A DNA stretch of 64,000 nucleotides from Candidatus Aerophobetes bacterium Ae_b3b (GCA_005223085.1 NJBP01000004.1:855-64854); one strand, 5' to 3'. Shown: positions 5,640 through 57,941, numbered from the stretch's first letter. A program made the numbers and translations. Notes: generated by a model from the sequence alone, not told the origin.

Positions 5640-6038
5640 ATGGAGAAAGGAGTGAGATCAGTGTATCCAGAAAATCTAAAATACTTGGATACTCACCAAT
5701 GGATTAAGGTGGAAGCGACCATTGGTAAGGTCGGAATTAGCTGGTACGGACAAGAACAGCTTGGTGAAATTTTGTTGGTTGAGCTACCCAAGGTCGGCGA
5801 GGAGATAACGCACAAGAAAACATTTGCTACACTTGAGTCGTCCAAAACAGCCTTCGAAGTTCCTTCACCGGTAAGTGGGAAAGTGATAGAAATCAATACT
5901 CAGCTTGAGGAGGACCCTTCCTTGATTAACAAAGATCCTTACGGACGCGGTTGGATGATAAAGCTCGAAATCTCCCATCCGCAAGAAATCGATTCTTTGC
6001 TCAACGCACAGGAATATAAAAAGTTAGTGGAACAATAG
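5640..6038 (+). CDS. gcvH: glycine cleavage system H protein (lipoyl carrier)
   Basis: Motifs YLDTHQWIK...VGISWYGQEQLGEI and lipoyl-lysine context LESSKTAFEV...SGKVIEIN. A GTG at 5661 with AAGGAG 8 nt upstream is an alternative start. Confidence 0.85.
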   Translation: MEKGVRSVYPENLKYLDTHQWIKVEATIGKVGISWYGQEQLGEILLVELPKVGEEITHKKTFATLESSKTAFEVPSPVSGKVIEINTQLEEDPSLINKDPYGRGWMIKLEISHPQEIDSLLNAQEYKKLVEQ

Positions 6039-35478: not shown

Positions 35479-36417
35479 ATGACAGACTTAATAACGAGAA
35501 TAGCTTGGCTGTACTATAAAGAAGGATTGAAAGAGACTCAAATTGCTAGTATGCTGGATCTATCACGGAGCAAGGTAGGTCGTTTACTTCAGAAGGCTCG
35601 CCAGGACGGAATTGTTCACTTCCAGGTGCTCGGGACTACCAGCAATTGCCTAGAGATCGAGAAAAAACTCATTGACTTATTTGATTTGCAGGACGCAGTA
35701 GTAGTTCCCACAGTTTCAGAAAATAAGATTAAAGAGAGTTTAGCCAAGGCAGCCGCTCAATACCTCGAGAGACATCTCCCCAGTGGAAGCCTCTTTGCGG
35801 TAGGTTGGGGAATCACCATATCCGAAGTGCCTAAATTTATTCGCTCGCAAGAAATCCGCGATCTCAGAATAGTCACCCTTAATGGAGGACTTACCCCTTC
35901 ATTTTATCTAAATCCCTACGACGTTGGGAGCAGGCTGGCCTATATCCTTGGAGGAGAGTGTTACTATGTTCACGCTCCTGCCATAACCACATCCGAGCAT
36001 CTGTGTCGCTCCCTTAAAGCCGATGCTACCGTAGAGCAGGCTCTGGAGATGGCCAAACACGCTGATTACTTTATGGTGGGCATCGGTAGGGCCGGTGCTG
36101 AGTCGACCTTGGTTAAGATGAGATATCTTAATCTAGGAGAAACCGAAGCTCTACGTCAACAAGGTGCCGTGGGGGATATCCTGGGCCAGTTTTTCAATGT
36201 CCAGGGTGAAAAAGTTAACTGTGACCTCCACAAAAGAATTGTAGGCTTTCCCATCGAGGATTTGAGCAAAATGAAAAATGTGATCGGACTGGCCGGGGGA
36301 ATAGCTAAAGCAGAGGCCATCCTAGGAGCACTCCATGGCATGTACATTAAGATCCTCATCACCGACGAGAAGACGGCCGAGTCCCTGATAAATCTTGAGC
36401 AAAGATCAGCTTCTTGA
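35479..36417 (+). CDS. SorC/DeoR-type sugar-binding transcriptional regulator
   Basis: N-terminal HTH IAWLYYKEGLKETQIASMLDLSRSKVGRLLQKARQDGIV followed by a sugar-phosphate-binding domain (...VGWG.T...). Confidence 0.85.
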   Translation: MTDLITRIAWLYYKEGLKETQIASMLDLSRSKVGRLLQKARQDGIVHFQVLGTTSNCLEIEKKLIDLFDLQDAVVVPTVSENKIKESLAKAAAQYLERHLPSGSLFAVGWGITISEVPKFIRSQEIRDLRIVTLNGGLTPSFYLNPYDVGSRLAYILGGECYYVHAPAITTSEHLCRSLKADATVEQALEMAKHADYFMVGIGRAGAESTLVKMRYLNLGETEALRQQGAVGDILGQFFNVQGEKVNCDLHKRIVGFPIEDLSKMKNVIGLAGGIAKAEAILGALHGMYIKILITDEKTAESLINLEQRSAS

Positions 36418-38182: not shown

Positions 38183-39067
38183 GTGAAGAAGCTTAAGTGG
38201 AGAAAACTTCTGGTTATCCTGGCCCTGCTGGGCCCAGCCATGGCTATGTTCATAGGACTTACCGTCTATCCTTTCATCAAAAACCTCATCTGGAGTACTA
38301 CCTTTTTTGTCCTCTACAAACCTACAAGCCAATACGTTTCTGCTGGTCTGGAAAACTACAAGGATATTCTGTTTGGGATTGAATTCTGGAACAGCGTCGA
38401 ATCCAGTTTAGTAATCGTTTTTGGAGCCCTGGCTATAGAGTGTTTCATTGGCCTGGGAGTCGCTCTGGTGCTAAATGAGAGGTTCCGGGGACGGGGCATT
38501 CTGAGGACTCTCTTCATTATCCCCATGGGAGTTATGCCCATAGTAGCCGGAGTGGTCTGGAAACTGATGCTCTTTCCTGGAGGGAGTCTAATTAGCGACA
38601 TCCTGGTGAAGATGCGATTGGCTTCCGGTCAGCTCGACTTCTGGGGTGATGTCCGGCTAGCCCGACTGAGTGTCATGGCGGCGGACATCTGGGGCTGGAC
38701 CCCTTTTGTGGGCCTTATTCTTCTGGCTGGCCTGCAGGCCATCCCCAGTGAGTTATACGATGCGGCCCAGGTGGACGGTGCCTCACAGCTGCAGAGATTC
38801 ACCCATGTGACCGCCCCCCTGCTCAAGTACGCCATAATTGTTGCTCTTATGTTTCGGGGAATGGATCTCCTTCGTCTTTTTGACACGGTGTACATGATGA
38901 CCCAGGGAGGTCCCGGATATGCTACAGAAGTCATCAGTTTCTTTATCTACCGAAAAGGCTTTTCGGAGTTTGGTGTGGGATACGCGGCTGCTACGTCGGT
39001 CATAGTATTCGTGGTAATCTTCGTCATAGCTCAAATTACGGTGCGCAAGTCCGGTATTGCTGCCTGA
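38183..39067 (+). CDS. carbohydrate ABC transporter permease (MalF/UgpA-like)
   Basis: GTG start, six TM segments, and the EAA-loop region ELYDAAQVDGASQLQRFTHVTAPLL. Confidence 0.85.
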   Translation: MKKLKWRKLLVILALLGPAMAMFIGLTVYPFIKNLIWSTTFFVLYKPTSQYVSAGLENYKDILFGIEFWNSVESSLVIVFGALAIECFIGLGVALVLNERFRGRGILRTLFIIPMGVMPIVAGVVWKLMLFPGGSLISDILVKMRLASGQLDFWGDVRLARLSVMAADIWGWTPFVGLILLAGLQAIPSELYDAAQVDGASQLQRFTHVTAPLLKYAIIVALMFRGMDLLRLFDTVYMMTQGGPGYATEVISFFIYRKGFSEFGVGYAAATSVIVFVVIFVIAQITVRKSGIAA

Positions 39068-39078
39068 GAGGTCTAAAT

Positions 39079-39909
39079 GTGAAGAGAATAAACATACCTA
39101 AAACCATCGGCATTTGTCTGGTAGTCCTCTACGTTGTGGCGGCTCTAATTCCAGTCTACTGGGTGGTTACCACCGCCTTTAAACCCCGGATAGAAGTGTA
39201 TACCTTTCCGGTGAAGTATATACCTTCCTCTTTCACCTGGGAGCCAGCTCATAATTCCCTTACCCAGCGGCCAACCATGAGTTTCCTCCGAAACAGTCTC
39301 TTTGCTGCAGTCGGCGCTACTATTCTCGCTCTGGCGCTGGGAGTGCCAGCTGCCTATGCCCTAGCCCGAGAGAAATTCCCGGGAAGGAAGGATATAGCCT
39401 TTTTTATCTTGACCACCAGAATGTTCCCTCCGGTAACTATTTGCATCCCCATCTACTTTATTATTAGGAATGTAGGGTTGTTGGATAGGCTCGCCGGTTT
39501 GATAATCGTATACGCCATGTTTAACCTGGCTATCATCATTTGGGTAATGAAGGGATACATTCAACAGGTGCCGGTGGAAATTGAGGAAAGTGCCAGGGTA
39601 GATGGTTGCACCAAACTGGGGGCTTTTATCAGAATCACCCTGCCTCTGCTTGCCCCCGGAATGGCTGCGGTAGCAATTATTTCTCTGGTATTGTCGTGGA
39701 ACGAATTCCTCTACGCTCTCATACTTACTCATTCGCCGGCTGCCAAAACCTTGCCGGTGGGAATTGCTGAATTCATTGGCGGTGCCTACGGCATTCTCTG
39801 GGGTGAAATCTGCTTCCTTGGTACTGTAGCCATTATCCCTATGATCGTGCTCATTATGGTGGTTCAGAAATACATCGTCCGCGGTTTGACTATGGGCGCC
39901 ATAAGATAA
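39079..39909 (+). CDS. carbohydrate ABC transporter permease (MalG/UgpE-like)
   Basis: GTG start and the EAA-loop region EIEESARVDGCTKLGAFIRITLPLLAPG. Confidence 0.85.
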   Translation: MKRINIPKTIGICLVVLYVVAALIPVYWVVTTAFKPRIEVYTFPVKYIPSSFTWEPAHNSLTQRPTMSFLRNSLFAAVGATILALALGVPAAYALAREKFPGRKDIAFFILTTRMFPPVTICIPIYFIIRNVGLLDRLAGLIIVYAMFNLAIIIWVMKGYIQQVPVEIEESARVDGCTKLGAFIRITLPLLAPGMAAVAIISLVLSWNEFLYALILTHSPAAKTLPVGIAEFIGGAYGILWGEICFLGTVAIIPMIVLIMVVQKYIVRGLTMGAIR

Positions 39910-40589
39910 ACAGCGTGGTTTCGCCCATAGATTCTAAGACCCCAGTCGAGAGTACCGTGCTCCAGTCATCCCTCGCGGGCTCCCCCATCTTGCGCTAATT
40001 ATGTTCCCGTATAGGAAACTCAATAATTTGAAAGAAATAGGTGTAATAAAAGGCGACTTGAGAACCAAGTTGATAGGTGAAAATGAGCTAGAATTTCCAA
40101 GGAAAACAGGAATTTTTATAAAGCGAGGTTAAAGAAAAAAGAAAAATTCAAAAATTTCTCAAGATAACGGCTGGATCTTTGATAATTAAGGAAAAAAGCT
40201 GTACCCGGCCTTCAAGGAGTTGAGTTTCTTTTCCTAAAGGCGAGTGGATGTGTAAAGGTAATCTGGAATACTTGTGTTTATAAAAGGATAAAAGCCTTTC
40301 TCTCGGTTTAGGGAATGGCCTCTGGAATCTTGAATTAGTTAAAAAATTGATCTTTTGCATTTTCCGGAAGACCTCTCTTATGGAAAAGTCTGCAGGTCTT
40401 TTGGAGCCATTGTACACACCATAGGGGGAGAAGAGATGTTAGATATGGGTTTAGTGGACTGACACACTTAGGAGTTGAAATGAATTTGGGTGAGTTGAAA
40501 ACCTGCCTATAACCGGCAAAATCAGTTCTTGAATTGGCTAATCATTAATGCATAGATTCTGAACAGAAGAGACGAAAGGAGGCATTTGC

Positions 40590-41873
40590 GTGGCTAGATT
40601 TGATCCGATTGTTTTCTCTTCCTGGGAGGGACTCCATCAGGAAAACTATTTGATAGCCATGTATTTTATGGAGGTGGAGGCTAGCGTAGATCCAGTAGAG
40701 TTGGGTGTAGAGATCGCAGTGGACCAGACTACTGGCACCTGGACTGCCGTACCAGCCGAAACACCGGAAGTCCGTCGTCACCATATGGCCAAGTTGATAG
40801 CTCTTCACGAAGTTCCAAATTATGAGTTTGAGGTTCCTCAGGATACCAAGACAAGGCGCTATCTAATTCAGATAGCATTCCCTACCATAAACTTTGGACC
40901 CCAGATTCCCATGCTGTTGAGCAGTGTGTTTGGCAACTTATCGTCTCGTGGCTGGATAAAATTACTGGACCTTCAGTTTCCCAGAACCTTTCTGGAAAGT
41001 TTTCCTGGTCCAAAATTTGGAATTGAAGGATTGCGCAGGCTTCTAGGGATATGGGATAGACCAATCTTATGTAATGTTATTAAACCCTGTACTGGTATCA
41101 GTCCTGAAGTAGGAGCTGAACTTGTCTACCAGGCAGCCAGGGGAGGGGTAGATATCATTAAGGACGATGAGTTGATCGGTGATGCTCCCTTTTCTCCAAT
41201 GGTAAAGCGAGTGAAGGAATACATGTGCCGACTCAAGGAAGCCGACGAACAGAAAGGCGAAAAGACGCTATTTGCAATAAATGTTACTGACCGGCAGGAT
41301 AAGATTCGGGATAACGCTCTGAGAGCGATTGAGGCAGGGGCTAACGCACTGATGATAAGCTTTGCAACGGTCGGTTTCTCCATGGTACGAACTCTGGCAG
41401 AGGATAAGTCCATAAATGTTCCCATAATGGGGCATATGAATTTTGCCGGCGCGCTTTGCGAATCACCATGTTCAGGTGTGAGCTCCGAACTAATCTGTGG
41501 AAAGTTGGCCCGAATGGTGGGTATGGATATGGTTCTTGTTTATCCTCCTCAGAGCCGATTTCATCTCATAGAAAATAAGTTTGAGCGTGTTGTGCAGATA
41601 TTGCAGCAACCTTTTTCCAAAATAAAACCAAGCTTTCCTTTATTAGCTGGCGGTGTTCATCCGGGAATAGTTCCTGCTACTCTAGACTCAATGGGGACTG
41701 ATGTCATTATTGGCGCCGGAGGTTCTGTTCACGGTCATCCTGGTGGTGCTGTAGCCGGAGCTCGGGCTTTCCGGCAGGCCTTTGAAGCCTATTCTCGTGG
41801 CGTTGACTTGGAAGGATGGGCTCAGGATAAAGAGGAGCTGCAGCAAGCCTTGGGACTTTGGGGAACAGCATGA
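40590..41873 (+). CDS. RuBisCO-like protein (form IV RuBisCO large-subunit homolog)
   Basis: GTG start with AAAGGAGG 7 nt upstream. Motifs are VAVDQTTGTW, GNLSS, IKPCTGIS (KPK changed to KPC; Cys codon at 41088-41090), GGVDIIKDDE (KDDE retained, at the same 26-residue spacing from the KP motif as in RuBisCO), IMGHMNFAG and GAGGSVHGHPGG. Confidence 0.85.
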   Translation: MARFDPIVFSSWEGLHQENYLIAMYFMEVEASVDPVELGVEIAVDQTTGTWTAVPAETPEVRRHHMAKLIALHEVPNYEFEVPQDTKTRRYLIQIAFPTINFGPQIPMLLSSVFGNLSSRGWIKLLDLQFPRTFLESFPGPKFGIEGLRRLLGIWDRPILCNVIKPCTGISPEVGAELVYQAARGGVDIIKDDELIGDAPFSPMVKRVKEYMCRLKEADEQKGEKTLFAINVTDRQDKIRDNALRAIEAGANALMISFATVGFSMVRTLAEDKSINVPIMGHMNFAGALCESPCSGVSSELICGKLARMVGMDMVLVYPPQSRFHLIENKFERVVQILQQPFSKIKPSFPLLAGGVHPGIVPATLDSMGTDVIIGAGGSVHGHPGGAVAGARAFRQAFEAYSRGVDLEGWAQDKEELQQALGLWGTA

Positions 41874-42865
41874 GCTTGGTAGACGAAGAAGAAAAACAGC
41901 GGTCTGTTCTGGCTCCTGAGTTCTATAGAAAAATGTTAGCCGTTAGGCTATTCGAGCAGCGTGCTATTGAGCTTTACACTCGAGGAGAGATTCGGGGAGT
42001 TATTCACCCCTATATCGGTGAGGAAGCTGTAGCTGTAGGAGCGTGCGCTGTTCTCAACAATGATGACTACGTGGTTTCTACTCATCGCGGCCATGGCCAT
42101 TGCATTGCCAAAGGAGCTTCATTGGATCGGATGATGGCCGAACTTCTGGGACGTAGCAATGGCTACTGTCGAGGAAAGGGTGGTTCCATGCATCTGGCCA
42201 CCTTTGAAGTGGGAATGTTGGGTGCCATAGGTATCGTGGCAGCAGGTATTCCCATTGCTGTGGGAGCTGGACTATCAGTGAAATTGAGAAAGACTCGTCA
42301 GGTAGTAATTTGCTTTTTCGGTGATGGTGCTGTCAACCAGGGAGCATTCCATGAGGGTTTAAATATGGCTGCTGTGTGGAACTTACCGGTTGTCTTTCTG
42401 TGTGAAAATAATTTCTATGCTATCTCTACTCACGTGAGCAGAGTTTCGGCAGTAACCGAGGTGGCTCGGAGGAGTTGTGCCTATGACATTCCAGGTAAGC
42501 GAGTCGATGGCAATTCCGTATGGGCTGTCTACGAGGCGGTTCAGGAGGCAGTAGCCCGGGCTAGACATGGACATGGTCCAAGTCTCATCGAGGCTCTGAC
42601 CTACCGCCATGAAGGACATTACAAGGGAGACCCCGGTCATTATCGACCACCAGAGGAGTTAAAAAAATGGCAACGGAAGGATCCCATTAAAAAGTTAAGG
42701 AAAGAGTTACTAGCTAAAAATTGGCTGGAGCCAAAAGCACTGGAGGAACTGGAACAGGAGGTTGCCCAAGATGTACAAAGGGCCGTTGAGTTTGCCAGGA
42801 AGAGTCCCTATCCTGCAGAGGAGGAACTCACAAGCGATATATTCGGAGGAGACCATAGGAAATGA
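41870..42865 (+). CDS. ThDP-dependent dehydrogenase E1 component, alpha subunit (acetoin/pyruvate/2-oxoisovalerate dehydrogenase type)
   Basis: Motifs ...IHPYIGEEAVAVGA...STHRGHGH...GKGGSMH...GDGAVNQGAFHEGLN.A..W.LPVVF.CENN. The ATG at 41870 overlaps the RLP stop (ATGA). The listed ORF start is 41858. Confidence 0.85.
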   Translation: MSLVDEEEKQRSVLAPEFYRKMLAVRLFEQRAIELYTRGEIRGVIHPYIGEEAVAVGACAVLNNDDYVVSTHRGHGHCIAKGASLDRMMAELLGRSNGYCRGKGGSMHLATFEVGMLGAIGIVAAGIPIAVGAGLSVKLRKTRQVVICFFGDGAVNQGAFHEGLNMAAVWNLPVVFLCENNFYAISTHVSRVSAVTEVARRSCAYDIPGKRVDGNSVWAVYEAVQEAVARARHGHGPSLIEALTYRHEGHYKGDPGHYRPPEELKKWQRKDPIKKLRKELLAKNWLEPKALEELEQEVAQDVQRAVEFARKSPYPAEEELTSDIFGGDHRK

Positions 42866-43839
42866 GGGAAATTAGCTACCGAGACGCCATAAATGAGGCT
42901 TTACAAGAGGAGATGAAGCGCGATGAAAGAGTGATACTACTTGGCGAAGACATCTCGCACTATGGTGGACCTCGGCGAGTAACCTGGGGTCTTGTTGAGA
43001 GTTTTGGTGAAGACCGGGTCAGGGATACACCTATTTCAGAGAATACTATTATAGGCACGGGTCTGGGAGCCGCTATTACCGGTATGCGGCCGCTTGTGGA
43101 GATTTCGTATATAGATTTTGCTTTACTGGCTATGGATCAAATTGGTAACCAAGTAGCCAAATTATCCTATATGACCGGTGGTCAAACCAAGGTACCTTTG
43201 GTTATTCGGACCCAGGGTGGGGCTGGTGGTGGCACCGCTGCTCAGCACTCGCAGAGCTTGGAGATGCTATTTGTACATATTCCTGGGCTGAAAGTGGTAA
43301 TTCCGGCTACTCCTTATGATGCTAAGGGATTAATTAAGATGGCTATCCGGGATGATAGCCCGGTGGTCTTCATTGAACACAAGTTGCTCTATAGTACCAA
43401 GGGAATGGTTCCGGAAGAAGAGTATCTTATTCCTTTCGGTAAGGCGGCAATTCGCCGCAGTGGTTCGGATATTACCATGGTAACTTATTCGGCCATGTTG
43501 TCAGAAGTGATGGCGGCTGCTGACGTACTCCATCAGAAGGAGATAGAAGCAGAAGTGCTTGATCTGAGGACCCTTATCCCATTAGATATTGATGGTGTTC
43601 TGGCCTCGGTGAAAAAGACAGGGAGGTTACTGATAATCCATGAGGCCTCTTTGGTTGGAGGAATGGGGGCTGAAATTGCTGCCCAAGTTCAGGAACAGGC
43701 ATTTGACTATCTGGATGCCCCTGTTATCCGTCTGGGAGCAGTTCCGATACCTATTCCTTATTCAGAGTCCCTGGAGCGGCTGGTTTTTCCCAATAAAGGG
43801 AAAATAGTTACTGCTAGCCGTGCCCTAATTGTTGCTTAA
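42862..43839 (+). CDS. ThDP-dependent dehydrogenase E1 component, beta subunit
   Basis: Motifs ISYRDAINEAL.EEM.RDERV.LLGEDI...DTPISEN...AQHSQSLE...PGLKVV.PATPYDAKGL. ATGA overlap with the alpha subunit. Confidence 0.85.
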   Translation: MREISYRDAINEALQEEMKRDERVILLGEDISHYGGPRRVTWGLVESFGEDRVRDTPISENTIIGTGLGAAITGMRPLVEISYIDFALLAMDQIGNQVAKLSYMTGGQTKVPLVIRTQGGAGGGTAAQHSQSLEMLFVHIPGLKVVIPATPYDAKGLIKMAIRDDSPVVFIEHKLLYSTKGMVPEEEYLIPFGKAAIRRSGSDITMVTYSAMLSEVMAAADVLHQKEIEAEVLDLRTLIPLDIDGVLASVKKTGRLLIIHEASLVGGMGAEIAAQVQEQAFDYLDAPVIRLGAVPIPIPYSESLERLVFPNKGKIVTASRALIVA

Positions 43840-43938: not shown

Positions 43939-44345
43939 TCAATTAGAATTCGGCAATTTGCACCAAAGACAGGAATTTGACGAGTGTCCAAAGAGGTTAT
44001 GAAGAACAAAGTTGTAAACGTTCCTAAACGCCCTCGTAGTCTCCAGAGACGAGACCCTCGCTCTAGGGAGAAGCTTCCTGAGGTTGATCACTGCTGCTGT
44101 GAGGAGAAGTTGGGTCTCCATCATAGCGAGTGACCTGGCAACCAATTGCCCGAGCACTATCAATGTACCTTTTTCGATCTGGGTAAGTGTTGGATTCTTC
44201 CTTTTTCGCACAGTAGATAATTTAGTTAGTGCGATGGCTCTTAAATCGTCTTGGTAGCTTTCTACCCCGAGGACAGATGAAAAGATCTTGCTCTATCATA
44301 ATAACAGTATATTCAGGAGCGTTGGGAAGGCAGCAAATGAATGCA
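43939..44345 (-). mobile_element. remnant of an IS1182/IS5-like transposase gene (two out-of-frame fragments, DDE core deleted)
   Basis: The fragment 44315->44223 reads EYTVIMIEQDLFICPRGRKLPRRFKSHRTN* (a y.CP.G..L zinc-ribbon-like motif of such transposases). The listed ORF 43939..44211 reads ...TQIEKGTLIVLGQLVARSLAMMETQLLLTAAVINLRKLL, matching the conserved transposase C-terminus (..vE..fg.lK...rar.rgl.k...q.lLtAaaiNl.rl). Confidence 0.5.
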
Positions 44346-44384: not shown

Positions 44385-44409
44385 TCAAGGGGAAAGAATT
44401 TCCCCTTGA
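44385..44409. other. perfect 10-bp hairpin next to the IS remnant
   Basis: TCAAGGGGAA-agaat-TTCCCCTTGA. Confidence 0.4.
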
Positions 44410-44543
44410 TTATCTTGTACGGAGGTAAACGTCCGCTTCTAGCATTTATTCTTCTTCAGCACCGTCAAAGTGATGGGTTTTGACCTGTGAGGGGATAATA
44501 GTATGCCGATTCGCTGAGAAAACAGTGAAAGGGGTTTTTGAGG

Positions 44544-45638
44544 ATGAGACTCTTGTTGACCAGTAAACTAGAAGATGAAGACCTGAAGATATTGAGTCGC
44601 TACTTTGATGAAATAAGAATTCGTGGTCTCTACGTGCGTTCCAAGATTCTCCGGCCAGAGGAACTGGCTGCGGAGTTAGGAAATGTTGATATTCTGGTAG
44701 TAGAGTTTGATCAGGTAACACCAGAGGTATTGGATACCGCACCCAACCTGAAGTTAATAGTTTCGCTGCGGGCTGGTGCAGGCCGTAACATTAACCTGAG
44801 GGCTGCCACAGAAAGAGGCATACTGGTGGCCTGCTGTCCCGGTCGTAGCGCTGATCAGGTGGCTGATTTCACCCTGGGTGTGATAGTAGCCCTTGTCCGA
44901 CACATTGCTGAGACTCACTGTCTAATCAAGTCTCGACAGCTTACCGAGAAAAATCCCAAGCGAGAGGGCTTTGCCAAAGGTGATGTTGTCTGGATTATGA
45001 ATGATCCCCAGAACTTTAGCTTCTTGCGTTTCAAAGGACCCATATTAGCTGGTCGGACTCTGGGTATTTTGGGATTTGGTGTCATCGGCCGGGAGGTAGC
45101 CCGCCGAGCCGGAGGCTTTAAGGTAACTATGATTGCCCATGATCCCTACGTTTCACCTGAGGAAATAGCAGAATTTAGAGTAAAGCTGGTTGATTGCGAC
45201 ACTCTGTTCAGAGAGTCAGACTTTCTTACGGTGCATGTTAAGGATAGTCCTGAAACCCGTGGCTTGGCTGGAAGATATCAGTTCTCCCTGATGAAATCTA
45301 CCGCTTACTTTATCAATACGGCTCGGGGTTCCGTCGTTGACTACAATGCCTTATACGAGGTGCTGGTTAACAAGAAAATTGCCGGTGCAGCTCTGGATGT
45401 ATTCGAGGAAGAACCGCTGCCCCCTGATCACCCACTGCTGGATCTGGACAATGTCCTACTGACTCCTCACATTGCCGGGGCCAGTCCCGATTGCTATAGG
45501 GTATCCTCTCCCCTGGCGAGAAAGGCAATTGAGGACTTTCTGGCTGGTCGCAAACCGCGATTTCTGGCCAACGAGCAGGTCTGGGAACGCCGAAGGTTCA
45601 GAATCGACAAAGACAAATCAGATTACCGGGAAAATTAA
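44544..45638 (+). CDS. D-isomer-specific 2-hydroxyacid dehydrogenase (PGDH-like) with an insertion in the catalytic domain
   Basis: Motifs GILGFGVIGREVARR (GxGxxG), ...INTARG..VD..AL...L....I.GAALDVFE.EP... and LLTPHIAGAS. An alternative TTG start lies at 44538. Confidence 0.8.
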   Translation: MRLLLTSKLEDEDLKILSRYFDEIRIRGLYVRSKILRPEELAAELGNVDILVVEFDQVTPEVLDTAPNLKLIVSLRAGAGRNINLRAATERGILVACCPGRSADQVADFTLGVIVALVRHIAETHCLIKSRQLTEKNPKREGFAKGDVVWIMNDPQNFSFLRFKGPILAGRTLGILGFGVIGREVARRAGGFKVTMIAHDPYVSPEEIAEFRVKLVDCDTLFRESDFLTVHVKDSPETRGLAGRYQFSLMKSTAYFINTARGSVVDYNALYEVLVNKKIAGAALDVFEEEPLPPDHPLLDLDNVLLTPHIAGASPDCYRVSSPLARKAIEDFLAGRKPRFLANEQVWERRRFRIDKDKSDYREN

Positions 45639-47152
45639 TGAGCTCTCGGGAATTGGTAATTGGAATAGATATTGGAACTTCTCAAGCCAAAGGAGGGGTA
45701 TTTGATCCCCAAGGCAGATGTCTGGGGAAGGCCTCCTTCTCGTATGCCATACATTCCCCACATCCTTCTTGGGATGAGGTTGACGCTGAGGACTGGTGGC
45801 AGGCGGTCTGTCACATAATCCACCAATCTCTTGCCACAGCCAGAGTGTCCAGCAGGGATATTGCTGCCATATCAGTCAGTAGCCTGCTACCCTGCTGCCT
45901 TCCGGTCGATCACCAGGGAAACCCCCTCCGTAGGGCCATTATCTGGCGCGATCGGCGCACCGATCAAGAGTGCGCTTGGATGGAGCAGCACATCGGAGGC
46001 GATGCCTGCTTCGAAATCTCCGGCAACCGTATTGACCATTATTTCTGGGGTCCTAAGGTGCTCTGGATAAAGCATCAGGAGCCAAAAATCTTTAAGAGAA
46101 CCTGGAAGCTGCTACAGGCTCACAGCTACATGGTGCTGAAGCTTTGTGGTGAAACGGTGACTGATTTCACCTGTGGCAATCTCTCTATACCCTTCTATGA
46201 TTACCGCAGGAAATGCTGGTCACCTGCAATGAGTGAGAAGATGGGGGTTCCCATTGAGATGCTGCCTGATTTAAGACCTTCACACATGGTGGTCGGTCGG
46301 GTGAGCACCAACGTAACCGGAGAAACTGGTCTTGATAGGGGTACCCTGGTAGTCACAGGGTGTGGAGACTTTGCTTCCTCAACCCTGGGAGCGGGCGTTT
46401 ATCGTCAGGGAGAGGCTTGCATGATGTTGGGAACCGCCGGAAACTTACTCATCCCTATGGATAACCCCAACTTCGATCCCCGTCTCATTAATTCTTCTCA
46501 TGCCTTGCCCAACCGGTACATAAGTTTTGCCACTTCTTATGCTGGTGGCTCACTTCAGTGGTTACGGCAGGTTCTGGCTGGATCAAGAAACGAATTTGAC
46601 ATCTCTTACCAACAGTTGGATTTGGAGGCCTCCCGCATCCCGCTAGGATCAGAGGGACTGCTGTTTCTCCCATTTCTTCCGGGAGAACTTACTATTAACT
46701 GGGACCGGACATCACGAGGTGTCTTCTTTGGCCTAACTCTGAATCACACCAGAGGACACCTCTACCGAGCTGTACTGGAATCGATTGGATATCGATACCG
46801 TCACATGCTAGAAATCATGGCCAGTCGCGGAATCAGGGTGAAAAAAGCAACCCTTATCAATGGCGGTGGAAAAAGTCCAGTTTGGCGACAAATTCTGGCC
46901 GACATTACCGGTATGCACCTTAATTACACGGAGTCAGAGGGAGCTCCCCTGGGAAACGCAGTATTGGCTGCCATGGGAGCCAAGCTCATCAAGAGTGGCG
47001 AGGAAGTAAAGAACTGGTTATCGATAAAGAGTGAAACTGAACCCGACCAGAGAGCTTATCGGTTATACAACGATTACTTTCAACTGTACAAAAGACTTTA
47101 TGAGCACCTGAAGGATGATTTTCAGGAACGCTATCGCTTTGTTGGCAGCTAA
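45638..47152 (+). CDS. FGGY-family carbohydrate kinase (paralog 1)
   Basis: Motifs LVIGIDIGTSQAKGGVFD...RRAIIWRDRRT...GGGKSPVWRQILADITG. Its start overlaps the upstream stop (TAATG). Confidence 0.85.
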   Translation: MSSRELVIGIDIGTSQAKGGVFDPQGRCLGKASFSYAIHSPHPSWDEVDAEDWWQAVCHIIHQSLATARVSSRDIAAISVSSLLPCCLPVDHQGNPLRRAIIWRDRRTDQECAWMEQHIGGDACFEISGNRIDHYFWGPKVLWIKHQEPKIFKRTWKLLQAHSYMVLKLCGETVTDFTCGNLSIPFYDYRRKCWSPAMSEKMGVPIEMLPDLRPSHMVVGRVSTNVTGETGLDRGTLVVTGCGDFASSTLGAGVYRQGEACMMLGTAGNLLIPMDNPNFDPRLINSSHALPNRYISFATSYAGGSLQWLRQVLAGSRNEFDISYQQLDLEASRIPLGSEGLLFLPFLPGELTINWDRTSRGVFFGLTLNHTRGHLYRAVLESIGYRYRHMLEIMASRGIRVKKATLINGGGKSPVWRQILADITGMHLNYTESEGAPLGNAVLAAMGAKLIKSGEEVKNWLSIKSETEPDQRAYRLYNDYFQLYKRLYEHLKDDFQERYRFVGS

Positions 47153-47173: not shown

Positions 47174-48706
47174 ATGGTTGTAATAGGATTGGATCTGGGA
47201 ACTACTGTCTGTAAAGCTGGGCTCTTCGATACCACAGGAAAACTTTTAAAACTGGTTAGAAGGGAATATCCGGTTACCAGTGATTATCCGGGGTGGGCTG
47301 AGCAGAATCCTGATATTGTTTGGAACACCATTCGAATGGTTTTGTCAGAGATCGCTGAAGATAAACAGTTAAACGATCCTATCAAGGCGATTTGCATCTC
47401 AGCTCAGGGTGAGGCAGTAGTCTTTCTCGATCAACGGGGCAGGCCCTTGCGTAATTCCATCCTCGGGATGGATATGAGATCGGTGGAGCAGGCAGAGCGT
47501 TTAAAAAGCAAGCTGGGAGCCGAATGGTTTTTAGAGACCCCCGGAGTTCCTCCTCATCCCCTCACTACAGTAGCCAAGATCCTCTGGGTTAAGGAACATG
47601 AGCCGGAGATTGCCCAAAAAACTGTTCGCTACCTTTGCTATGAGGATTTTGCCTTCTTCAAACTAGGCGACGTTCCCGCCATCGACTACTCCCTTGCTTG
47701 CCGGACTGGGCTTTTTGATATGAGAAAGAAAAAATGGTCAGCGAAGATATTGGATTATACCGGGATAAACGAAGATCAACTGGCCAACATCTACCCCTCG
47801 GGAGAGGCGATCGGCAAAATTAACCGAAAAATAGCTCATACTTTGGGCTTACCGACCGATATTCTACTGGTCACTGGCGGACACGATGTGACCTGTGCGG
47901 CTTTGGGAGCAGGTGCCATCAACAAGGGAGTGGGGGGAGATATTCTGGGGACGGCGGAAATTTTTGGCGTTACTGTGGAGAACAACTCAGTGGCGAAAGA
48001 AATAAAACCGAGTAACTTTGCCTGCTACTGTCACGTAGTTCCGAACAAGTTCTGGCTGATGACTTTGAATCACACCGGTGGGCTTCTCCTCAGGTGGTAT
48101 CGAGATAACTTTGGTGAGTCAGAGGTAAAGCTGTCTGAGAAAGAAGGAAAAGATGTCTTTGACTTAATAGTAAGTAAAAGTAAGCCCGACATTGCAGAAA
48201 GCATGATCCTTCCCCATTTTGTAGGCAGCGGCACTCCCTGGATAGATGCTCGTTCCAAAGGAGCAATAGTGGGTTTGAGCATTCACACCAACAAAGCCGA
48301 TATTATTCGAGCCATCCTGGAAGCCGTCATTTATGAGCAAAAGATAAGTATAGACATTTTTGAAAAATACGGAGTCGATATTAAAGAGATCAGAGCAGTG
48401 GGGGGAGGTAGTAAATCTCGGTTCTGGCTACAGATAAGGTCAGATATCCTGGGAAAAGCTGTTCTTACTTTGGAAACTGAGGAGGCTTCCTGCCTCGGAA
48501 CCGCCATTCTTGCCAACTATGCTCTGGGGAATTATCCCTCTATTGAGAACGGCGTCGAACAAATGGTGAAGATGAAGGACAGAATCGAACCGAACAAAAA
48601 ACTTTACTCCCGGTACCAGCAAAGATATCTTATTTACCAAGAGCTTTACCCAGCCCTCAAGAAGATCAATTATTCGCTTCAGCAAATAAGCTCCAGGGGA
48701 GGTTGA
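47174..48706 (+). CDS. FGGY-family carbohydrate kinase (paralog 2)
   Basis: Motifs VVIGLDLGTTVCKAGLFD...GGHDVTCAALGAG...VGGGSKSRFWLQIRSDILG. Confidence 0.85.
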   Translation: MVVIGLDLGTTVCKAGLFDTTGKLLKLVRREYPVTSDYPGWAEQNPDIVWNTIRMVLSEIAEDKQLNDPIKAICISAQGEAVVFLDQRGRPLRNSILGMDMRSVEQAERLKSKLGAEWFLETPGVPPHPLTTVAKILWVKEHEPEIAQKTVRYLCYEDFAFFKLGDVPAIDYSLACRTGLFDMRKKKWSAKILDYTGINEDQLANIYPSGEAIGKINRKIAHTLGLPTDILLVTGGHDVTCAALGAGAINKGVGGDILGTAEIFGVTVENNSVAKEIKPSNFACYCHVVPNKFWLMTLNHTGGLLLRWYRDNFGESEVKLSEKEGKDVFDLIVSKSKPDIAESMILPHFVGSGTPWIDARSKGAIVGLSIHTNKADIIRAILEAVIYEQKISIDIFEKYGVDIKEIRAVGGGSKSRFWLQIRSDILGKAVLTLETEEASCLGTAILANYALGNYPSIENGVEQMVKMKDRIEPNKKLYSRYQQRYLIYQELYPALKKINYSLQQISSRGG

Positions 48707-48710: not shown

Positions 48711-50018
48711 TTGGAACTGCTTTATCAAAAACTAAAATCTCTTCAAGAAAAAAAACAGCCTATAAAGGTGGGCCTGGTTGGATGCGGCCAGATGGGATCA
48801 GGAATGGTAAGTCTGGTAAGCCAGATGCCCGGATTAGAAGTTGCAGCCGTGGCCGAATTAGACCTGGAAAAAGCCAAAGGTGCTTATGAGACTGCTGGAA
48901 TTCCCGAGGGAAAAATTGCCGTTGTTGAGGACCCGGAAAAAGCGGAGGATCTCCTAGGTAGAGGCAAAGTCATCATCTGCAAAAATGCTTTGACTCTGGT
49001 TTCTATCCCTTCTCTTCAAGCAGTGGTGGAAGCTACTGGTATCCCTCGAGTCGGTGCCCAGATTGCTTTAGAATGCATCTTTCACCAAAAGCATGTAATT
49101 ATGCTGAATGTGGAAACCGAGGTGACGGTGGGTTGGATACTGAAAAAAATGGCTGATAAAACCAATGTTATCTACACCGTCTCGGCGGGAGACGAGCCGG
49201 GAGCCATAAAAGAGCTCTACAACTTCGCCTCTTCTTTAGGATTTTCGGTGGTGACCGCCGGGAAGGGTAAAAATAATCCCCTAGATTTGGATGCAACTCC
49301 TGATGAGTGCCAGGAAGAAGCCCTGAGAAAAGATATGAACCCCAAAATGCTAACTTCCTTTATAGACGGGACAAAAACAATGATTGAAATGGCTGCAGTG
49401 GCCAACGCCACTGGTCTCGTTCCCGACGTCCCGGGAATGCATGGTCCCAAAGTTGATGTCTCTGAACTCACTCAGGTATTAATACCCAAGAAAGACGGAG
49501 GTATATTGAGTAGAAGTGGGGTGGTTGACTACTCTATCGGCAAAGTGGCTCCGGGTGTTTTCCTGATAGTAACCACGGGTAAAGAAAGGGTAAGAAAAGA
49601 TTTAGGATTCTACGGCATGGGAGAAGGTCCCTATTACCTTCTTTACCGTCCTTATCATCTATGCAGTATAGAGACTCCTCTTTCCGTAGCTAGAGCGGTT
49701 CTTTTTAATGAACCCACCTTAAATTCAGAACAAAGAGTAGCTGAAGTGGTAACGGTAGCCAAGCAGAATCTAGATGTCGGAGTCACCATTGATGGAATAG
49801 GGGGCTACCATGTGCTTGGACGAATCTATCCAGCGCAAGAAGCAAGAAAAAAAAATCTTTTACCTTTAGGACTAGCTGAAGGAGGCAGAGTCAAGATAAG
49901 AGTCGCCAAAGGGGAATACATCACTATGGATATGGTTGAGCCAGAAACGGAATCGACCGTTTACCAGCTTTGGAAATTACAGGAAAGCCTCTGGCAATCC
50001 GAGCTTAAGAGTAAATAA
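48711..50018 (+). CDS. NAD(P)-binding oxidoreductase with C-terminal SAF domain (COG4091 'homoserine dehydrogenase-like' family)
   Basis: TTG start, a Rossmann motif VGLVGCGQMGSG, and a C-terminal SAF-like beta-clip (...VAKQNLDVGVTIDGIGGYHVLGRI...). Confidence 0.65.
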   Translation: MELLYQKLKSLQEKKQPIKVGLVGCGQMGSGMVSLVSQMPGLEVAAVAELDLEKAKGAYETAGIPEGKIAVVEDPEKAEDLLGRGKVIICKNALTLVSIPSLQAVVEATGIPRVGAQIALECIFHQKHVIMLNVETEVTVGWILKKMADKTNVIYTVSAGDEPGAIKELYNFASSLGFSVVTAGKGKNNPLDLDATPDECQEEALRKDMNPKMLTSFIDGTKTMIEMAAVANATGLVPDVPGMHGPKVDVSELTQVLIPKKDGGILSRSGVVDYSIGKVAPGVFLIVTTGKERVRKDLGFYGMGEGPYYLLYRPYHLCSIETPLSVARAVLFNEPTLNSEQRVAEVVTVAKQNLDVGVTIDGIGGYHVLGRIYPAQEARKKNLLPLGLAEGGRVKIRVAKGEYITMDMVEPETESTVYQLWKLQESLWQSELKSK

Positions 50019-50046: not shown

Positions 50047-50679
50047 TTGAATTTAGAAAAAGTAGAGGTGGTCCCAAGCAGGATGCTGCGGGTGAGGATA
50101 CCGCAAGAACAGGGAGTAAGATCGGTCTTTTGCCGGACAGAATCAGGGACTGCCGGGACAGGTAAGCCAATGCCGAAAAAGCTAGAATCTGAAGAAGGCG
50201 AGAAATACCACTTTGCTGTGGGAAGCGATCATGCCGGGTTCTCTCTAAAGGAGAGGATCAAAGAGTACCTCTGTGGAGAAGGAAGAGCTGTCCTGGATGT
50301 AGGTATCCATACTTTGAGGAGTGTCGGCACCGGGCCCGTAGCCGAGAAAGTGGGACGTCTGGTGGCCAAGGGGAAATGCGAAAAGGGTATTTTGGTTTGT
50401 GGAACCGGTATTGGTATGGCAATGGGAGCAAATAAAGTCTTCGGTATCAGAGCAGCCCTCTGTTACAACCAGTTTACTGCCTCTTATGCCAAGCGCCACA
50501 ATGATGCCAACGTAATTTGCCTGGGAGCCCGGGTTCTGGGGGAAGAACTGGCCATTGAGTGTGTCAGGACCTGGTTAAGGGAAGAATTTCTGAGGGATAA
50601 ATACGCCCAGCGCCTTGCCTATCTAGATGTTATTGAAAATCATTCCTGCCGGAATAAACTAGCAAAAAAGGGAGAGTGA
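50047..50679 (+). CDS. RpiB/LacA/LacB-family sugar-phosphate isomerase
   Basis: The core FAVGSDHAGFSLKERI...GILVCGTGIGMAMGANKV.GIRAA......A...R.HNDANV.CLGARV is typical. Family members usually begin near the GSDHAG motif, so the true start may be the ATG at 50170. Confidence 0.8.
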   Translation: MNLEKVEVVPSRMLRVRIPQEQGVRSVFCRTESGTAGTGKPMPKKLESEEGEKYHFAVGSDHAGFSLKERIKEYLCGEGRAVLDVGIHTLRSVGTGPVAEKVGRLVAKGKCEKGILVCGTGIGMAMGANKVFGIRAALCYNQFTASYAKRHNDANVICLGARVLGEELAIECVRTWLREEFLRDKYAQRLAYLDVIENHSCRNKLAKKGE

Positions 50680-50682
50680 ACT

Positions 50683-51720
50683 TTGAAAGCGTTAGTATAT
50701 CATGCCATCCAAGACTTTCGCATTGAAGAGATTGAAAAACCCGCCTGTCCACCAGAAGGCTTACTTCTAAAAGTTAAAGCTTGTGGTTTGTGTGGAGGAG
50801 ATGTTCGCACATACTTTGGGGGTCACAAAAGTGTCACTCCTCCCTGGATTATCGGCCATGAGATTGCGGGAATAGTAGAAGAAGTGGGCGATCAAACTAA
50901 AGGTTTCCATAAGGGAAATCGTCTGGCGGTAGCTCCTGTCGTTTACTGCGGTAAGTGCCCCTTTTGCCTCGAGGGGAAACATTATCTTTGCCAGAATGTC
51001 AAGGAAATTGCTCAGCATTGGCCAGGAGGATTTGCTGAATTTATGGCTATTCCGGAAGATGCTTTGAAATTGGGAAATGTTAATGTCATTCCTCAAGGTC
51101 TTTCCTTTGAAGAAGCTGCCATTTCCGAGCCTCCATCTTCGTGCCTTAATGCGCAGGATCGTGCTCAAGTTGGAATGGGAGATAGCGTGGTTATCATCGG
51201 AGCAGGGCCGGTCGGCTGTTTTCACTGTGAAATTGCCCGTATTCGTGGCGCTCTAAAGATTGTTATGGTAGATTTGTTGAATGAACGGCTAAAACTGGCC
51301 GAGCGATTTAGCCCCGATCTTCTTCTTGAGAGTAGTGACTCTGGATATCTTAAGAAGTTGAATGATGAAACAGAAGGTTTGGGGGCAGATGTCGTTATTG
51401 TGGCCTGCTCTTCCACCAAAGCCCAGCAGGATGCGCTAGAAATTGCCAGAAACGGAGGCAGAGTCATCTTTTTTGGAGGGCTTGCTCCGGGGAAAAGTTC
51501 CTCCAGCCTTGATGCTAACCTGCTCCATTACAAGAATCTGCAGATTTTTGGTGCCTACAGTTTTTCTCCTGAGCATCATCGGCTTTCTTTGAAGCTAATA
51601 TCTAAAGGAAAAATAGATGCCAAAAAGTATATCACTCATGTTATTCCCCTGGAGAACATCATTGAAGGCATTAAGGCGGTGAAGGAAGGGATAGTTTTAA
51701 AAGTAGTGGTCAGGATTTAG
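50683..51720 (+). CDS. Zn-dependent medium-chain alcohol/polyol dehydrogenase
   Basis: TTG start. Motifs CGLCGGDV, GHEIAGIV, the structural Zn Cys cluster CGKCPFCLEGKHYLC, and the Rossmann GAGPVG. Confidence 0.85.
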   Translation: MKALVYHAIQDFRIEEIEKPACPPEGLLLKVKACGLCGGDVRTYFGGHKSVTPPWIIGHEIAGIVEEVGDQTKGFHKGNRLAVAPVVYCGKCPFCLEGKHYLCQNVKEIAQHWPGGFAEFMAIPEDALKLGNVNVIPQGLSFEEAAISEPPSSCLNAQDRAQVGMGDSVVIIGAGPVGCFHCEIARIRGALKIVMVDLLNERLKLAERFSPDLLLESSDSGYLKKLNDETEGLGADVVIVACSSTKAQQDALEIARNGGRVIFFGGLAPGKSSSSLDANLLHYKNLQIFGAYSFSPEHHRLSLKLISKGKIDAKKYITHVIPLENIIEGIKAVKEGIVLKVVVRI

Positions 51721-55472: not shown

Positions 55473-55483
55473 CCTCACCTCTC

Positions 55484-56161: not shown

Positions 56162-56184
56162 GTTTTTCTCCAGCCAAAGTTAAT

Positions 56185-56298: not shown

Positions 56299-56366
56299 CC
56301 GGCATTTCCTCTCCTTTCAAAAAAACCATCATTTTGATTCTGATAATTTTTAAACTTTGCCAACTG

Positions 56367-57899: not shown

Positions 57900-57941
57900 T
57901 TTTAGAAGGTTTTTGTATTGACTAGCACAGATTTAAATGTT

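Follow-up and report, generated by a model that had tools for sequence, protein, structure and literature searches.

The analysis of 64 kb of DNA from a Candidatus Aerophobetes bacterium (hereafter, the window) points to a conserved gene triplet, in which a form IV RuBisCO-like protein (RLP) is encoded together with the two subunits of a ThDP-dependent enzyme of the E1 type. We propose, with a probability of about 0.5, that this triplet belongs to a catabolic module for sugars or polyols, where the E1 enzyme would cleave or decarboxylate a phosphorylated intermediate produced by the RLP. That the three genes constitute a real functional module, whatever its exact chemistry, appears likely. All three ORFs are intact and co-directional (Table 1), the first one starting with a GTG codon preceded by an AAGGAGG Shine-Dalgarno sequence. 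The RLP stop codon overlaps the E1alpha start codon as ATGA (41870-41873), and the E1alpha stop and E1beta start codons overlap in the same manner (42862-42865). As 4-base ATGA overlaps are the commonest type between co-directional bacterial genes, these junctions support a single RLP-E1alpha-E1beta operon, yet they are unremarkable on their own. Conservation on other contigs adds to the two verified junctions and sustains the proposal of an earlier note on this DNA that the three genes form one unit.

Table 1. Position of the genes and elements of the window discussed in the text.
Feature	Position	Strand	Basis
GcvH, outside the cluster	5640..6038	+	Pfam GCV_H 4.9e-42
SorC/DeoR-type sugar-binding transcriptional regulator	35479..36417	+	Pfam Sugar-bind 1.1e-71
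ABC transporter solute-binding protein SBP_bac_1, 513 aa	36553..38094	+	Pfam
Two ABC permeases (38183-39067 and 39079-39909)	38183..39909	+	L001/L005 orthologues annotated BPD_transp_1
RLP (RuBisCO-like protein, form IV), 427 aa	40590..41873	+	Pfam RuBisCO_large_N + RuBisCO_large
ThDP-dependent E1alpha, 331 aa	41870..42865	+	Pfam E1_dh, E 9e-91
E1beta, 325 aa	42862..43839	+	Pfam Transket_pyr + Transketolase_C
Terminator-like hairpin, 11-bp stem	44385..44409	+	consensus scan only
D-isomer-specific 2-hydroxyacid dehydrogenase (2-HADH)	44538..45638	+	Pfam
FGGY carbohydrate kinase 1, xylulokinase-like (below cut-off)	45638..47152	+	Pfam, NCBIfam
FGGY carbohydrate kinase 2	47174..48706	+	Pfam, NCBIfam
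DRL-family (DXR-like fold) NAD(P) oxidoreductase	48711..50018	+	Pfam DRL_cat 3.2e-70
RpiB-type sugar-phosphate isomerase, ~55-aa N-terminal extension	50047..50679	+	TIGR01120 rpiB 149 vs cut-off 138.65
Zn-dependent alcohol/polyol dehydrogenase	50683..51720	+	L005 orthologue ADH_N + ADH_zinc_N, 97% identical

At least three lineages of Aerophobetes possess the triplet, with 81-99% nucleotide identity and with flanks that are rearranged or different. The window and contigs L005 and L097 have a common gene order. In L091 and L098, another solute-binding protein (24% identity) is present, a Zn-dependent alcohol dehydrogenase and an FGGY kinase are located upstream and an unrelated convergent gene follows E1beta. 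In L001, an inversion affects the regulator, the transporter and the 2-HADH, and another RLP gene lies downstream of the triplet; the 2-HADH nevertheless stays with the triplet in this rearranged contig (83% identity). L001 and L005 both preserve the overlapping junctions, and comparison of the window with L001 gave dN/dS values of 0.115, 0.116 and 0.123 for the three triplet genes, all of which are under purifying selection. Since the triplet is kept while its flanks differ, it represents more than a chance adjacency, and it is not unique to this genome. No published description of an RLP-E1 pairing was found in the open-access literature, in line with what the earlier note had supposed, and the pairing is apparently undescribed.

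The closest RLP listed from a GTDB-representative collection is 55% identical to the one of the window. Among the matches listed, none of the 80 genomes with 47-55% identical RLPs possesses an E1 gene within 10 kb, while 67 of them encode a kinase (FGGY or UPF0261) within 5 kb of the RLP, of the FGGY family in 38 genomes and of the UPF0261/PEP_hydrolase type in 29. The RLP-E1 adjacency is therefore lineage-specific and not a general trait of these RLPs. A comparable arrangement exists in Chloroflexi, in the operon GntR - xylose-isomerase-like TIM barrel - RLP - (UPF0261 kinase - PEP_hydrolase - aldolase) - E1alpha - E1beta - E2, of which we know of no description. It likewise combines an RLP and an E1alpha-E1beta pair; however, its RLP belongs to another subfamily (35% identity to the RLP of the window, K177 being retained), its E1 belongs to another lineage (48-52% identity), the operon includes an E2 and its genes do not overlap. 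E1alpha-E1beta has been recruited independently beside this distant RLP clade.

Regarding the genes surrounding the triplet, the solute-binding protein is found again in L001, L005 and L097 with 82-98% conservation, and the permeases are 86-99% identical to their L001 and L005 orthologues. The regulator scores below the cut-offs of the NCBIfam LsrR and DeoR models, and an lsr (AI-2) system was discarded (LsrR, 213 for a cut-off of 486; AI-2 kinase, 213 for a cut-off of 528; NCBIfam). An Rfam scan of the whole 64-kb window for TPP or other riboswitches gave no match. Downstream of E1beta, a 700-bp spacer contains the hairpin and a small ORF on the minus strand (43939-44211), which has neither a Pfam match nor lipoyl similarity and was rejected as a candidate for an overlooked lipoyl or carrier protein. 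The 2-HADH that follows probably starts at the ATG codon at 44544. As the spacer and hairpin separate the triplet from the kinase and dehydrogenase genes, a shared pathway is deduced from conservation and not from co-transcription.

In the pathway that we favor, the module, whose three genes are passed on jointly in Candidatus Aerophobetes, would operate within sugar/polyol loci comprising a regulator and an ABC importer as well as RpiB, FGGY kinases and dehydrogenases for polyols and hydroxyacids. Its RLP is predicted to be Mg2+-dependent and non-carboxylating, to bind a monophosphate substrate and to enolize or isomerize a phosphorylated keto-sugar or keto-acid supplied by the dehydrogenases and kinases of the locus. 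The E1alpha2beta2 enzyme, apparently an intact ThDP enzyme, would then cut the C-C bond beside the carbonyl of the RLP-derived intermediate, either by decarboxylating a 2-oxo acid, possibly derived from the co-conserved 2-HADH, or by acetoin-type cleavage of an alpha-hydroxyketone or a diketone. Transketolase-like or acetoin-cleaving chemistry, as suggested in the earlier note, is plausible for the putative E1 activity; that this step directly follows the RLP, an order we infer, has an even chance of being correct. We lean slightly toward release or transfer of the ThDP-bound fragment with no E2 of its own, since the lack of E2 is a stable condition from one lineage to the next and is encountered again in sister clades. 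Independence of this E1 from any E2 is nonetheless proposed tentatively, at somewhat less than even odds, and the full version of this proposal, a stand-alone ThDP lyase or transferase using a sugar phosphate from the RLP without a lipoyl-E2, is to be considered doubtful.

The E1 pair itself has the complete domain set of the alpha2beta2 E1 enzymes of the 2-oxoacid/acetoin dehydrogenase type, with the ThDP motif (GDGAVNQG...CENN) and the catalytic His250 in E1alpha, and the catalytic Glu of DTPISE and His of AAQHSQ in E1beta. In its two-subunit organization, its ThDP motif and its catalytic His and Glu, it agrees with the PDH, BCKDH and acetoin E1s, and it matches the structures of heterotetrameric E1s (human 1NI4, Thermus thermophilus 1UM9, Pyrobaculum 1IK6) with E-values of 6.5e-68 (alpha) and 7e-89 (beta). 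In contrast to these enzymes, it is coupled to an RLP, has no E2 or E3 in its operon or in the 64 kb, and its E1alpha contains AIS instead of GMG/AMG in an active-site loop and a Tyr instead of a Ser beside the catalytic His. When judged against E2-linked Bathyarchaeia and human E1alpha, the E1alpha of the window clade and of an FGGY-linked clade have R42, P47, I185-S186 (for M-G) and Tyr251 (for Ser) in common. This motif set was rejected as a signature of E2 independence, Tyr/Phe251 and AIS being also found in the E2-containing contigs L099, L102 and L103. Regarding E1beta, three conservative differences only (F38, V257L, V291L) distinguish E2-linked from E2-less loci, and no feature was found in the sequences of either subunit that splits E2-less from E2-linked E1s. 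Sugar phosphates as substrates of E1-type enzymes have a precedent in the QncN/QncL/QncM system, in which an E1-family ThDP enzyme is reported to take a C2 unit from a ketose phosphate such as xylulose-5-phosphate (PMC6335953); this system is however biosynthetic and relies on a lipoyl/acyltransferase domain and an ACP, none of which is present here. The E1alpha-beta pairs oadhAB2 and oadhAB3 of Haloferax volcanii, which we liken to the present one by description and not by sequence, are of archaeal origin and unconnected to an RLP; no substrate has been identified for them, pyruvate and 2-oxoglutarate having been excluded (PMC8305020).

The "orphan" character ascribed to this E1 by the earlier note deserves a more nuanced answer. 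A tblastn search of the window and four related contigs, with Escherichia coli AceF, E. coli Lpd and two archaeal E2s as queries, retrieved no E2 or E3, the sole match being the lipoyl domain of GcvH (5784-5906), and a Pfam scan of 53 of the 58 window ORFs of at least 90 aa found no 2-oxoacid_dh, E3_binding or Pyr_redox_2 protein. The statements that the 64 kb lack both genes, and that GcvH, 35.8 kb upstream of E1alpha, is the only lipoyl-domain protein, were accurate. E2/E3 homologues are missing from L001, L005, L091, L097 and L098 as well, and no E2 was seen on the approximately seven triplet-bearing contigs from three lineages. The pair is thus without local partners; independence from E2 does not follow, since E2-linked relatives exist and the catalytic motifs are retained. 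The missing E3 is uninformative, as Lpd is encoded nearby in just two of the ~18 E2-containing loci of this E1 subfamily.

A less likely yet serious alternative is that the E1alpha-beta pair docks in trans on a lipoyl-E2 (and E3) encoded elsewhere in the genome, forming a canonical complex that would oxidize a 2-oxo acid or an acetoin-like ketol from the RLP pathway to acyl-CoA and NADH, which also seems to be the case for the Chloroflexi and L099 operons. An E2 adjoins the RLP-linked E1 of Chloroflexi contigs L117 and L176 and the E1 of L099 (sugar ABC-FGGY-E1alpha-E1beta-E2), whose E1alpha is the closest E2-linked relative of the one of the window and carries the same distinctive active-site motif set. 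Moreover, all catalytic residues for reductive acylation are kept in the E1, E1beta is full length with an undegraded C-terminal domain, GcvH indicates that lipoylation is evidently possible in this organism, and E3 is seldom adjacent even where E2 is present. Against such a complex stand the E2-less triplet contigs, together with the general rule that, in bacteria, the E1 and E2 genes for a given complex nearly always share an operon. Furthermore, the nearest E1alpha relatives are found in sugar-kinase operons, part of them with and part without E2; in L094 and L096 (DeoR/GH127-FGGY-E1alpha-E1beta), these sister operons stop at E1beta, before a convergent ArgRS gene, and of the loci of this E1 subfamily whose flanks are adequate, about half have no E2. 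Overrepresented beside E2-less E1alpha-beta pairs are SDR, Zn-dependent alcohol dehydrogenases, Gfo/Idh/MocA proteins, xylose-isomerase-like TIM barrels and ABC permeases.

An improbable alternative to cleavage is carboligation, DXS-like or similar to sugar branching, in which the E1 would decarboxylate pyruvate or hydroxypyruvate and join the C2 unit to the RLP product, at an aldehyde or keto group, a ketose being built and not cleaved. E1, DXS and transketolase have a common fold, reflected here by weak DXP_synthase_N and Transketolase_N Pfam matches, a DRL oxidoreductase is encoded in the cluster, and a role in two-carbon branching has been proposed for E2-less E1alpha/beta-like pairs of antibiotic pathways that involve deoxysugars. 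However, the locus looks catabolic (importer, SorC repressor, kinases) and has no biosynthetic neighbors, and DRL_cat is a broad family linked to DXR by shared fold only. The pair was not retained as a transketolase or DXS, being made of two chains instead of a single PP-Pyr-C chain, with weak partial matches to these models (18-79 bits for cut-offs of 466-682). For comparison, contig L001 carries a true transketolase (1001 bits) nearby.

It is very unlikely that no pathway is shared and that the pair, placed after the RLP by accident, is the pyruvate, branched-chain or acetoin E1 of the organism. The best NCBIfam match of E1alpha is a PDH E1alpha model, just below its cut-off (386.0 for 393.85), and E1beta passes the subfamily model PRK09212 (399.6 for 321), its score against the beta equivalog being 373.7 for 454; the nearest large clade, in addition, consists of Bathyarchaeia E1alpha-beta-E2 genes located beside Zn-dependent alcohol dehydrogenases, which look like an acetoin/butanediol locus. 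Such an accident is difficult to reconcile with a triplet whose overlapping codons stay intact amid reshuffled flanks in three lineages, with the independent RLP-E1 association of Chloroflexi and with an E1 pair unaccompanied by E2.

Returning to the favored catabolic pathway, the RLP has features consistent with the role assigned to it. In an active-site alignment including form I, MtnW and OiaX, it retains N123, K175, K201, D203, E204, H294, G381, G403 and G404 of the form I large subunit, among which the metal site (K201/D203/E204) and the P1-site glycines, while six positions are changed (K177 to C, R295 to M, H298 to A, H327 to L, K334 to R and S379 to A). Every NCBIfam equivalog model scores it below cut-off: RuBisCO type III (255 bits for 497) and form II (132 for 489), MtnW (360 for 409 and 323 for 513.6) and OiaX (NF042437, 220 for 700). 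A bona fide RuBisCO of forms I-III was rejected on these scores and on the incomplete catalytic and RuBP-binding set. The best structural and sequence match is MtnW/YkrW from Geobacillus kaustophilus (PDB 2OEK, E 1.4e-87, full length), with a common carbamyl-Lys/Asp/Glu metal site and loss of the RuBP P2-site residues in both proteins. However, Asn116 of the RLP (FGN116), invariant in 22 members of its clade, aligns with the FGK Lys of 2OEK and of Bacillus velezensis MtnW and is found at this position in true RuBisCO as well; this Lys, Lys98 in G. kaustophilus MtnW, acts there as the catalytic general base. In B. velezensis, mtnX adjoins mtnW, in contrast to the window, in which the RLP partners are E1 and sugar genes and the 53 ORFs scanned include no mtnX, mtnA, mtnB, mtnK, MTA phosphorylase or cupin. 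A DK-MTP-1-P enolase was accordingly rejected and, judging from these residues, the predicted protein cannot be a carboxylase or MtnW. A methionine-salvage or MTA-isoprenoid-shunt variant, in which an MtnW- or Rhodospirillum rubrum-type RLP would act on methylthio-pentulose phosphates and the E1 would stand in for the O2-dependent or cupin step, is scarcely credible in this context of sugar import and polyol oxidation, despite the MtnW matches and although, to our knowledge, an anaerobe could not use the MtnD dioxygenase.

A parallel in genomic context is OiaX of D-apionate catabolism, also an RLP inside a sugar/sugar-acid catabolic cluster, whose substrate is a phosphorylated keto intermediate from an adjacent kinase. 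OiaX differs in pairing with DUF1537 kinases and not with FGGY kinases or E1, and in having Gly and Ala at the N123 and K177 positions; the low model score and the FGGY kinases of the locus led us to reject an OiaX-type decarboxylase. Plasmid-borne RLPs of cultured bacteria, which also pair with DUF1537 kinases and have no E1, were likewise set aside as a model system, and Moorella-type RLPs are stated to be of unknown function (PMC7325909).

Most RLP clades are without known function and the few solved ones, in methionine salvage, the MTA-isoprenoid shunt and apionate catabolism, each brought new chemistry to light. The present locus is a tangible starting point for understanding a large RLP clade with a conserved partner kinase, found in Bacillota, Chloroflexota, Caldisericota and several archaeal groups, and it would tie what RLPs do to C-C cleavage by ThDP enzymes, in two lineages independent of each other. 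It also exposes a recurrent and unstudied class of E1alpha-beta pairs residing in sugar-kinase operons, many of them without E2. As all components are soluble enzymes, an in vitro approach is possible even though the sediment-dwelling Aerophobetes host is uncultured. If these pairs use sugar phosphates, anaerobic sediment bacteria would have in them a novel way of turning carbohydrates into C2 units. Finally, if the stand-alone E1 proves true, it would represent a new reaction for form IV RLPs and an equally new catabolic use, independent of E2, of the E1 fold in anaerobes, and the sister sugar kinase-E1alpha-E1beta operons would perform related chemistry.

The gene of a RuBisCO-like protein (RLP, form IV) and those of a ThDP-dependent E1alpha/E1beta pair are three contiguous open reading frames of the forward strand. 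At the RLP/E1alpha and E1alpha/E1beta junctions, the raw sequence reads ATGA, each start codon overlapping the preceding stop as the earlier note had claimed; 4-nt overlaps are frequent in operons and unremarkable per se. Upstream, the same-strand run comprises a SorC-type regulator, a solute-binding protein, two permeases and a 680-bp spacer, and E1beta is directly followed by a 700-bp spacer that contains a terminator-like hairpin; past this spacer lie a D-2-hydroxyacid dehydrogenase, two FGGY kinases, a DRL-family oxidoreductase, RpiB and a Zn-dependent dehydrogenase. The neighbourhood has thus the gene content of a predicted sugar or polyol utilisation locus. Elsewhere in the window, LptF/G, a dcw cluster, an RnfC-like protein, MTHFR and a LarA-like protein are encoded, a gene content which fits an anaerobic diderm of sediments.

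Positions of the triplet genes and of other window features
Feature	Position	Strand	Remarks
Gene row ending in GcvH	533-6038	+	URO-D-like (methyltransferase-type) protein, class IV aminotransferase, 2,4-diaminopentanoate dehydrogenase C-terminal-domain protein, MTHFR fused to DUF5981, GcvH
GcvH	5640-6038	+	Sole lipoyl-domain match in the window
LarA-like protein	28466-29845		Lactate racemase family, nickel-pincer cofactor-dependent; adjoins a hypothetical 197-aa ORF
RLP	40590-41873	+	GTG start, 7 nt past AAGGAGG; Pfam RuBisCO_large_N/RuBisCO_large
E1alpha	41870-42865	+	Pfam E1_dh
E1beta	42862-43839	+	Pfam Transket_pyr + Transketolase_C
RnfC-like gene	54165-55478		Next to the second sugar-utilisation cluster
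Second sugar-utilisation cluster	55484-63278	-	Solute-binding protein, two permeases, DeoC/LacD-family aldolase, aldo/keto reductase, third FGGY kinase, ribulose-phosphate 3-epimerase

The triplet is present in three lineages of Aerophobetes-like contigs, and the doubt formerly raised, that synteny might be lacking in relatives, is hence lifted. Lineage A groups the window with L005 and L097 (97-99% identity, identical gene order). In lineage B (L091-L093, L098; RLP 98%, E1alpha 89-90% and E1beta 88% identical to the window), the binding protein is another one (24% identity), a Zn-ADH and a single FGGY kinase precede the triplet, and an unrelated convergent gene lies 3' of E1beta. In lineage C (L001, L175; RLP 85%, E1 82-84%), the regulator, the transporter and the 2-hydroxyacid dehydrogenase have the opposite orientation to their window counterparts, and a second RLP (32% identical) and a true transketolase lie downstream. 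In lineages A and C, the D-2-hydroxyacid dehydrogenase still accompanies the triplet; the junction overlaps are preserved in L001 and L005. With dN/dS values between the window and L001 of 0.115 (RLP), 0.116 (E1alpha) and 0.123 (E1beta), purifying selection acts on each of the three.

Several local differences were seen among these contigs. Divergence from lineage B (L091/L098) is mosaic, with dS of 0.03-0.04 for RLP, 0.16 for E1alpha and 0.33 for E1beta, which suggests recombination within the operon. Compared with window 39910-40589, L005 has a ~490-bp insertion in the spacer upstream of RLP, called as a 212-aa ORF without Pfam match, and lacks ~260 bp of window 44482-44841 around the 2-hydroxyacid dehydrogenase start, its product being shortened to 252 aa. 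After the triplet, L001 9806-13538 holds a repetitive-sequence 56-aa ORF and the second RLP, which has G at the N123 position and a KPCAG motif and of which the window has no copy; the convergent transketolase follows, full-length at 1001 bits, and then a small ferredoxin and a DUF3604 protein.

In an alignment that also included MtnW, OiaX and a form I large subunit, the window RLP retains N123, K175, the K201/D203/E204 metal site, H294 and the G381/G403/G404 phosphate (P1) site, and carries the substitutions K177->C, R295->M, H298->A, H327->L, K334->R and S379->A. By established RuBisCO knowledge, these changes exclude RuBP carboxylation; the residue pattern suggests that the substrate may be a monophosphate. 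Assignment as MtnW, OiaX or form III was ruled out since the MtnW catalytic-lysine position is occupied by Asn, invariant across the RLP's clade, and since scores fall below cut-off for all NCBIfam equivalogs. Regarding the E1, the GDG...NN ThDP motif, the alpha catalytic His (His250) and the beta Glu and His are retained; in NCBIfam, E1alpha scores just under the PDH E1alpha equivalog cut-off and E1beta above its subfamily cut-off.

The triplet is not a general trait of the window's RLP family. The RLP clade (1921 matches at E <= 1e-30; 47-55% identity) spans Bacillota (Moorella, Thermacetogenium, Syntrophomonas), Chloroflexota, Caldisericota, Actinomycetota and several archaeal groups, and no E1alpha/E1beta gene occurs within 10 kb of the RLP in any of 80 species-representative genomes of its relatives (0/80). 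An FGGY kinase lies within 5 kb of the RLP in 38 of these genomes (among L008-L087) and a UPF0261 + PEP_hydrolase pair in 29, never together with the FGGY class; 13 of the 80 have neither at this distance. A saccharopine-dehydrogenase-like gene is often present in archaeal loci of the FGGY class, and a ComB-like phosphatase sometimes in those of the other. To our knowledge, neither context class has a described pathway. The function of Moorella-type RLPs has been stated as unknown (PMC7325909), and recent work has established UPF0261 as a kinase domain (PMC12624787). As plasmid-borne RLPs of cultured bacteria also adjoin DUF1537 kinases, the conserved RLP partner is a kinase and the E1 a lineage-specific addition.

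No E2 (lipoyl-acyltransferase) or E3 (dihydrolipoamide dehydrogenase, Lpd) was found in the 64-kb window by tblastn with E. coli AceF, Lpd and two archaeal E2 proteins, and the 53 long window ORFs (of 58) that were scanned with Pfam gave a concordant result, in agreement with the earlier note. GcvH, correctly singled out there as the only lipoyl protein some 35 kb away, lies 35.8 kb upstream of E1alpha, and its neighbours place it in a one-carbon/amino-acid context, not that of a 2-oxoacid dehydrogenase. The triplet contigs of lineages A, B and C likewise yielded no E2/E3.

Three equidistant groups neighbour the window E1alpha at ~58-63% identity: a large Bathyarchaeia clade with E1alpha-E1beta-E2 beside two Zn-ADHs; a small clade (P0124, P0165; L094, L096) with DeoR or GH127, FGGY kinase, E1alpha and E1beta, after which a convergent gene for arginyl-tRNA synthetase begins, so that there is no E2; and locus L099, with a sugar ABC transporter, FGGY kinase, E1alpha, E1beta and E2. 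Within the motif-defined E1 subfamily, E2 is absent from roughly half of the loci with adequate flanks, and the genes adjoining ten E2-less pairs show an over-representation of SDRs, Zn-ADHs, Gfo/Idh/MocA oxidoreductases, xylose-isomerase-like TIM barrels and ABC permeases. Since Lpd is nearby in only 2 of the ~18 E2-containing loci, the absence of E3 from the window is uninformative. Several active-site loop substitutions set the window and FGGY-linked E1 clades apart from the Bathyarchaeia and human enzymes; as a marker of E2 independence they were rejected, being also found in the E2-linked L099, L102 and L103. With E1beta showing three conservative differences only between E2-linked and E2-less loci, sequence alone cannot tell whether the E1 needs an E2. 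Among E2-less metagenomic loci, E1alpha and E1beta are apparently fused in L104 (1233-3302, 689 aa) and L119 (575-2557, 660 aa), and a large DUF6785/DUF6784 protein lies directly 3' of E1beta in L134 (3957-5894), which has an MTTB-family methyltransferase upstream, and in L139 (7793-9727).

When metagenomes were scanned for E1alpha genes with two motifs characteristic of the window E1alpha subgroup, and the flanks of these genes were classified, a further RLP-E1 association emerged. In L115 and L117, the RLP directly preceding E1alpha-E1beta is a distant one (35% identity with that of the window), in the order GntR regulator, xylose-isomerase-like TIM barrel, RLP, E1alpha, E1beta, with a complete lipoyl-E2 next in L117. 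This RLP clade belongs to Chloroflexi (Anaerolineae, Caldilineales; at least 120 clusters at 65-96% identity), and L176, whose RLP is 65% identical, presents a more extended operon of GntR, TIM barrel, RLP, UPF0261, PEP_hydrolase, Formyl_trans_N, class II aldolase, E1alpha, E1beta, E2 and SDR. Such loci show that the RLP-linked E1 of Chloroflexi would work together with E2. These RLPs retain K177, whereas the window RLP does not, and their E1alpha is only 48-52% identical to that of the window. As the nearest relatives of the window RLP lack E1 and those of the window E1 lack RLP, the two associations were assembled separately. The RLP-E1alpha-E1beta co-occurrence that the earlier note suggested looking for thus exists in three Aerophobetes-like lineages and in Chloroflexi, but not, within 10 kb of the RLP, among the 80 RLP relatives.

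The best-supported reading is that the triplet is part of a putative catabolic module. The locus would import, oxidise and phosphorylate a sugar or polyol, the RLP would enolise or isomerise the resulting phosphorylated keto compound, and E1alpha-beta would next perform a ThDP-dependent C-C cleavage, either decarboxylating a 2-oxo acid, which the D-2-hydroxyacid dehydrogenase could supply, or splitting an alpha-hydroxyketone or vicinal diketone in an acetoin-type manner. The ThDP-bound fragment might then be released, transferred, or handed to a lipoyl-E2 whose gene lies elsewhere. Given that E2 is consistently missing in three lineages and in the sister operons, we lean slightly towards E1alpha-beta acting without E2; its use of a lipoyl-E2 in trans, as E2 accompanies the Chloroflexi E1 in cis, appears the less probable course, yet a serious one. 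That an E1-family enzyme can use a ketose phosphate is documented for the QncN/L/M-type system (PMC6335953), which serves as a precedent, and in Haloferax volcanii the E1alpha-beta paralogues that lack an assigned substrate are a recognised problem (PMC8305020). No description of the RLP-E1 pairing was found in the open-access literature, which bears out the earlier note's unawareness of such a pathway. The component families are known; their combination and the pathway it implies are new as far as found, and the separate assembly of the two associations argues for a real complementarity between the predicted chemistries of RLP and E1.
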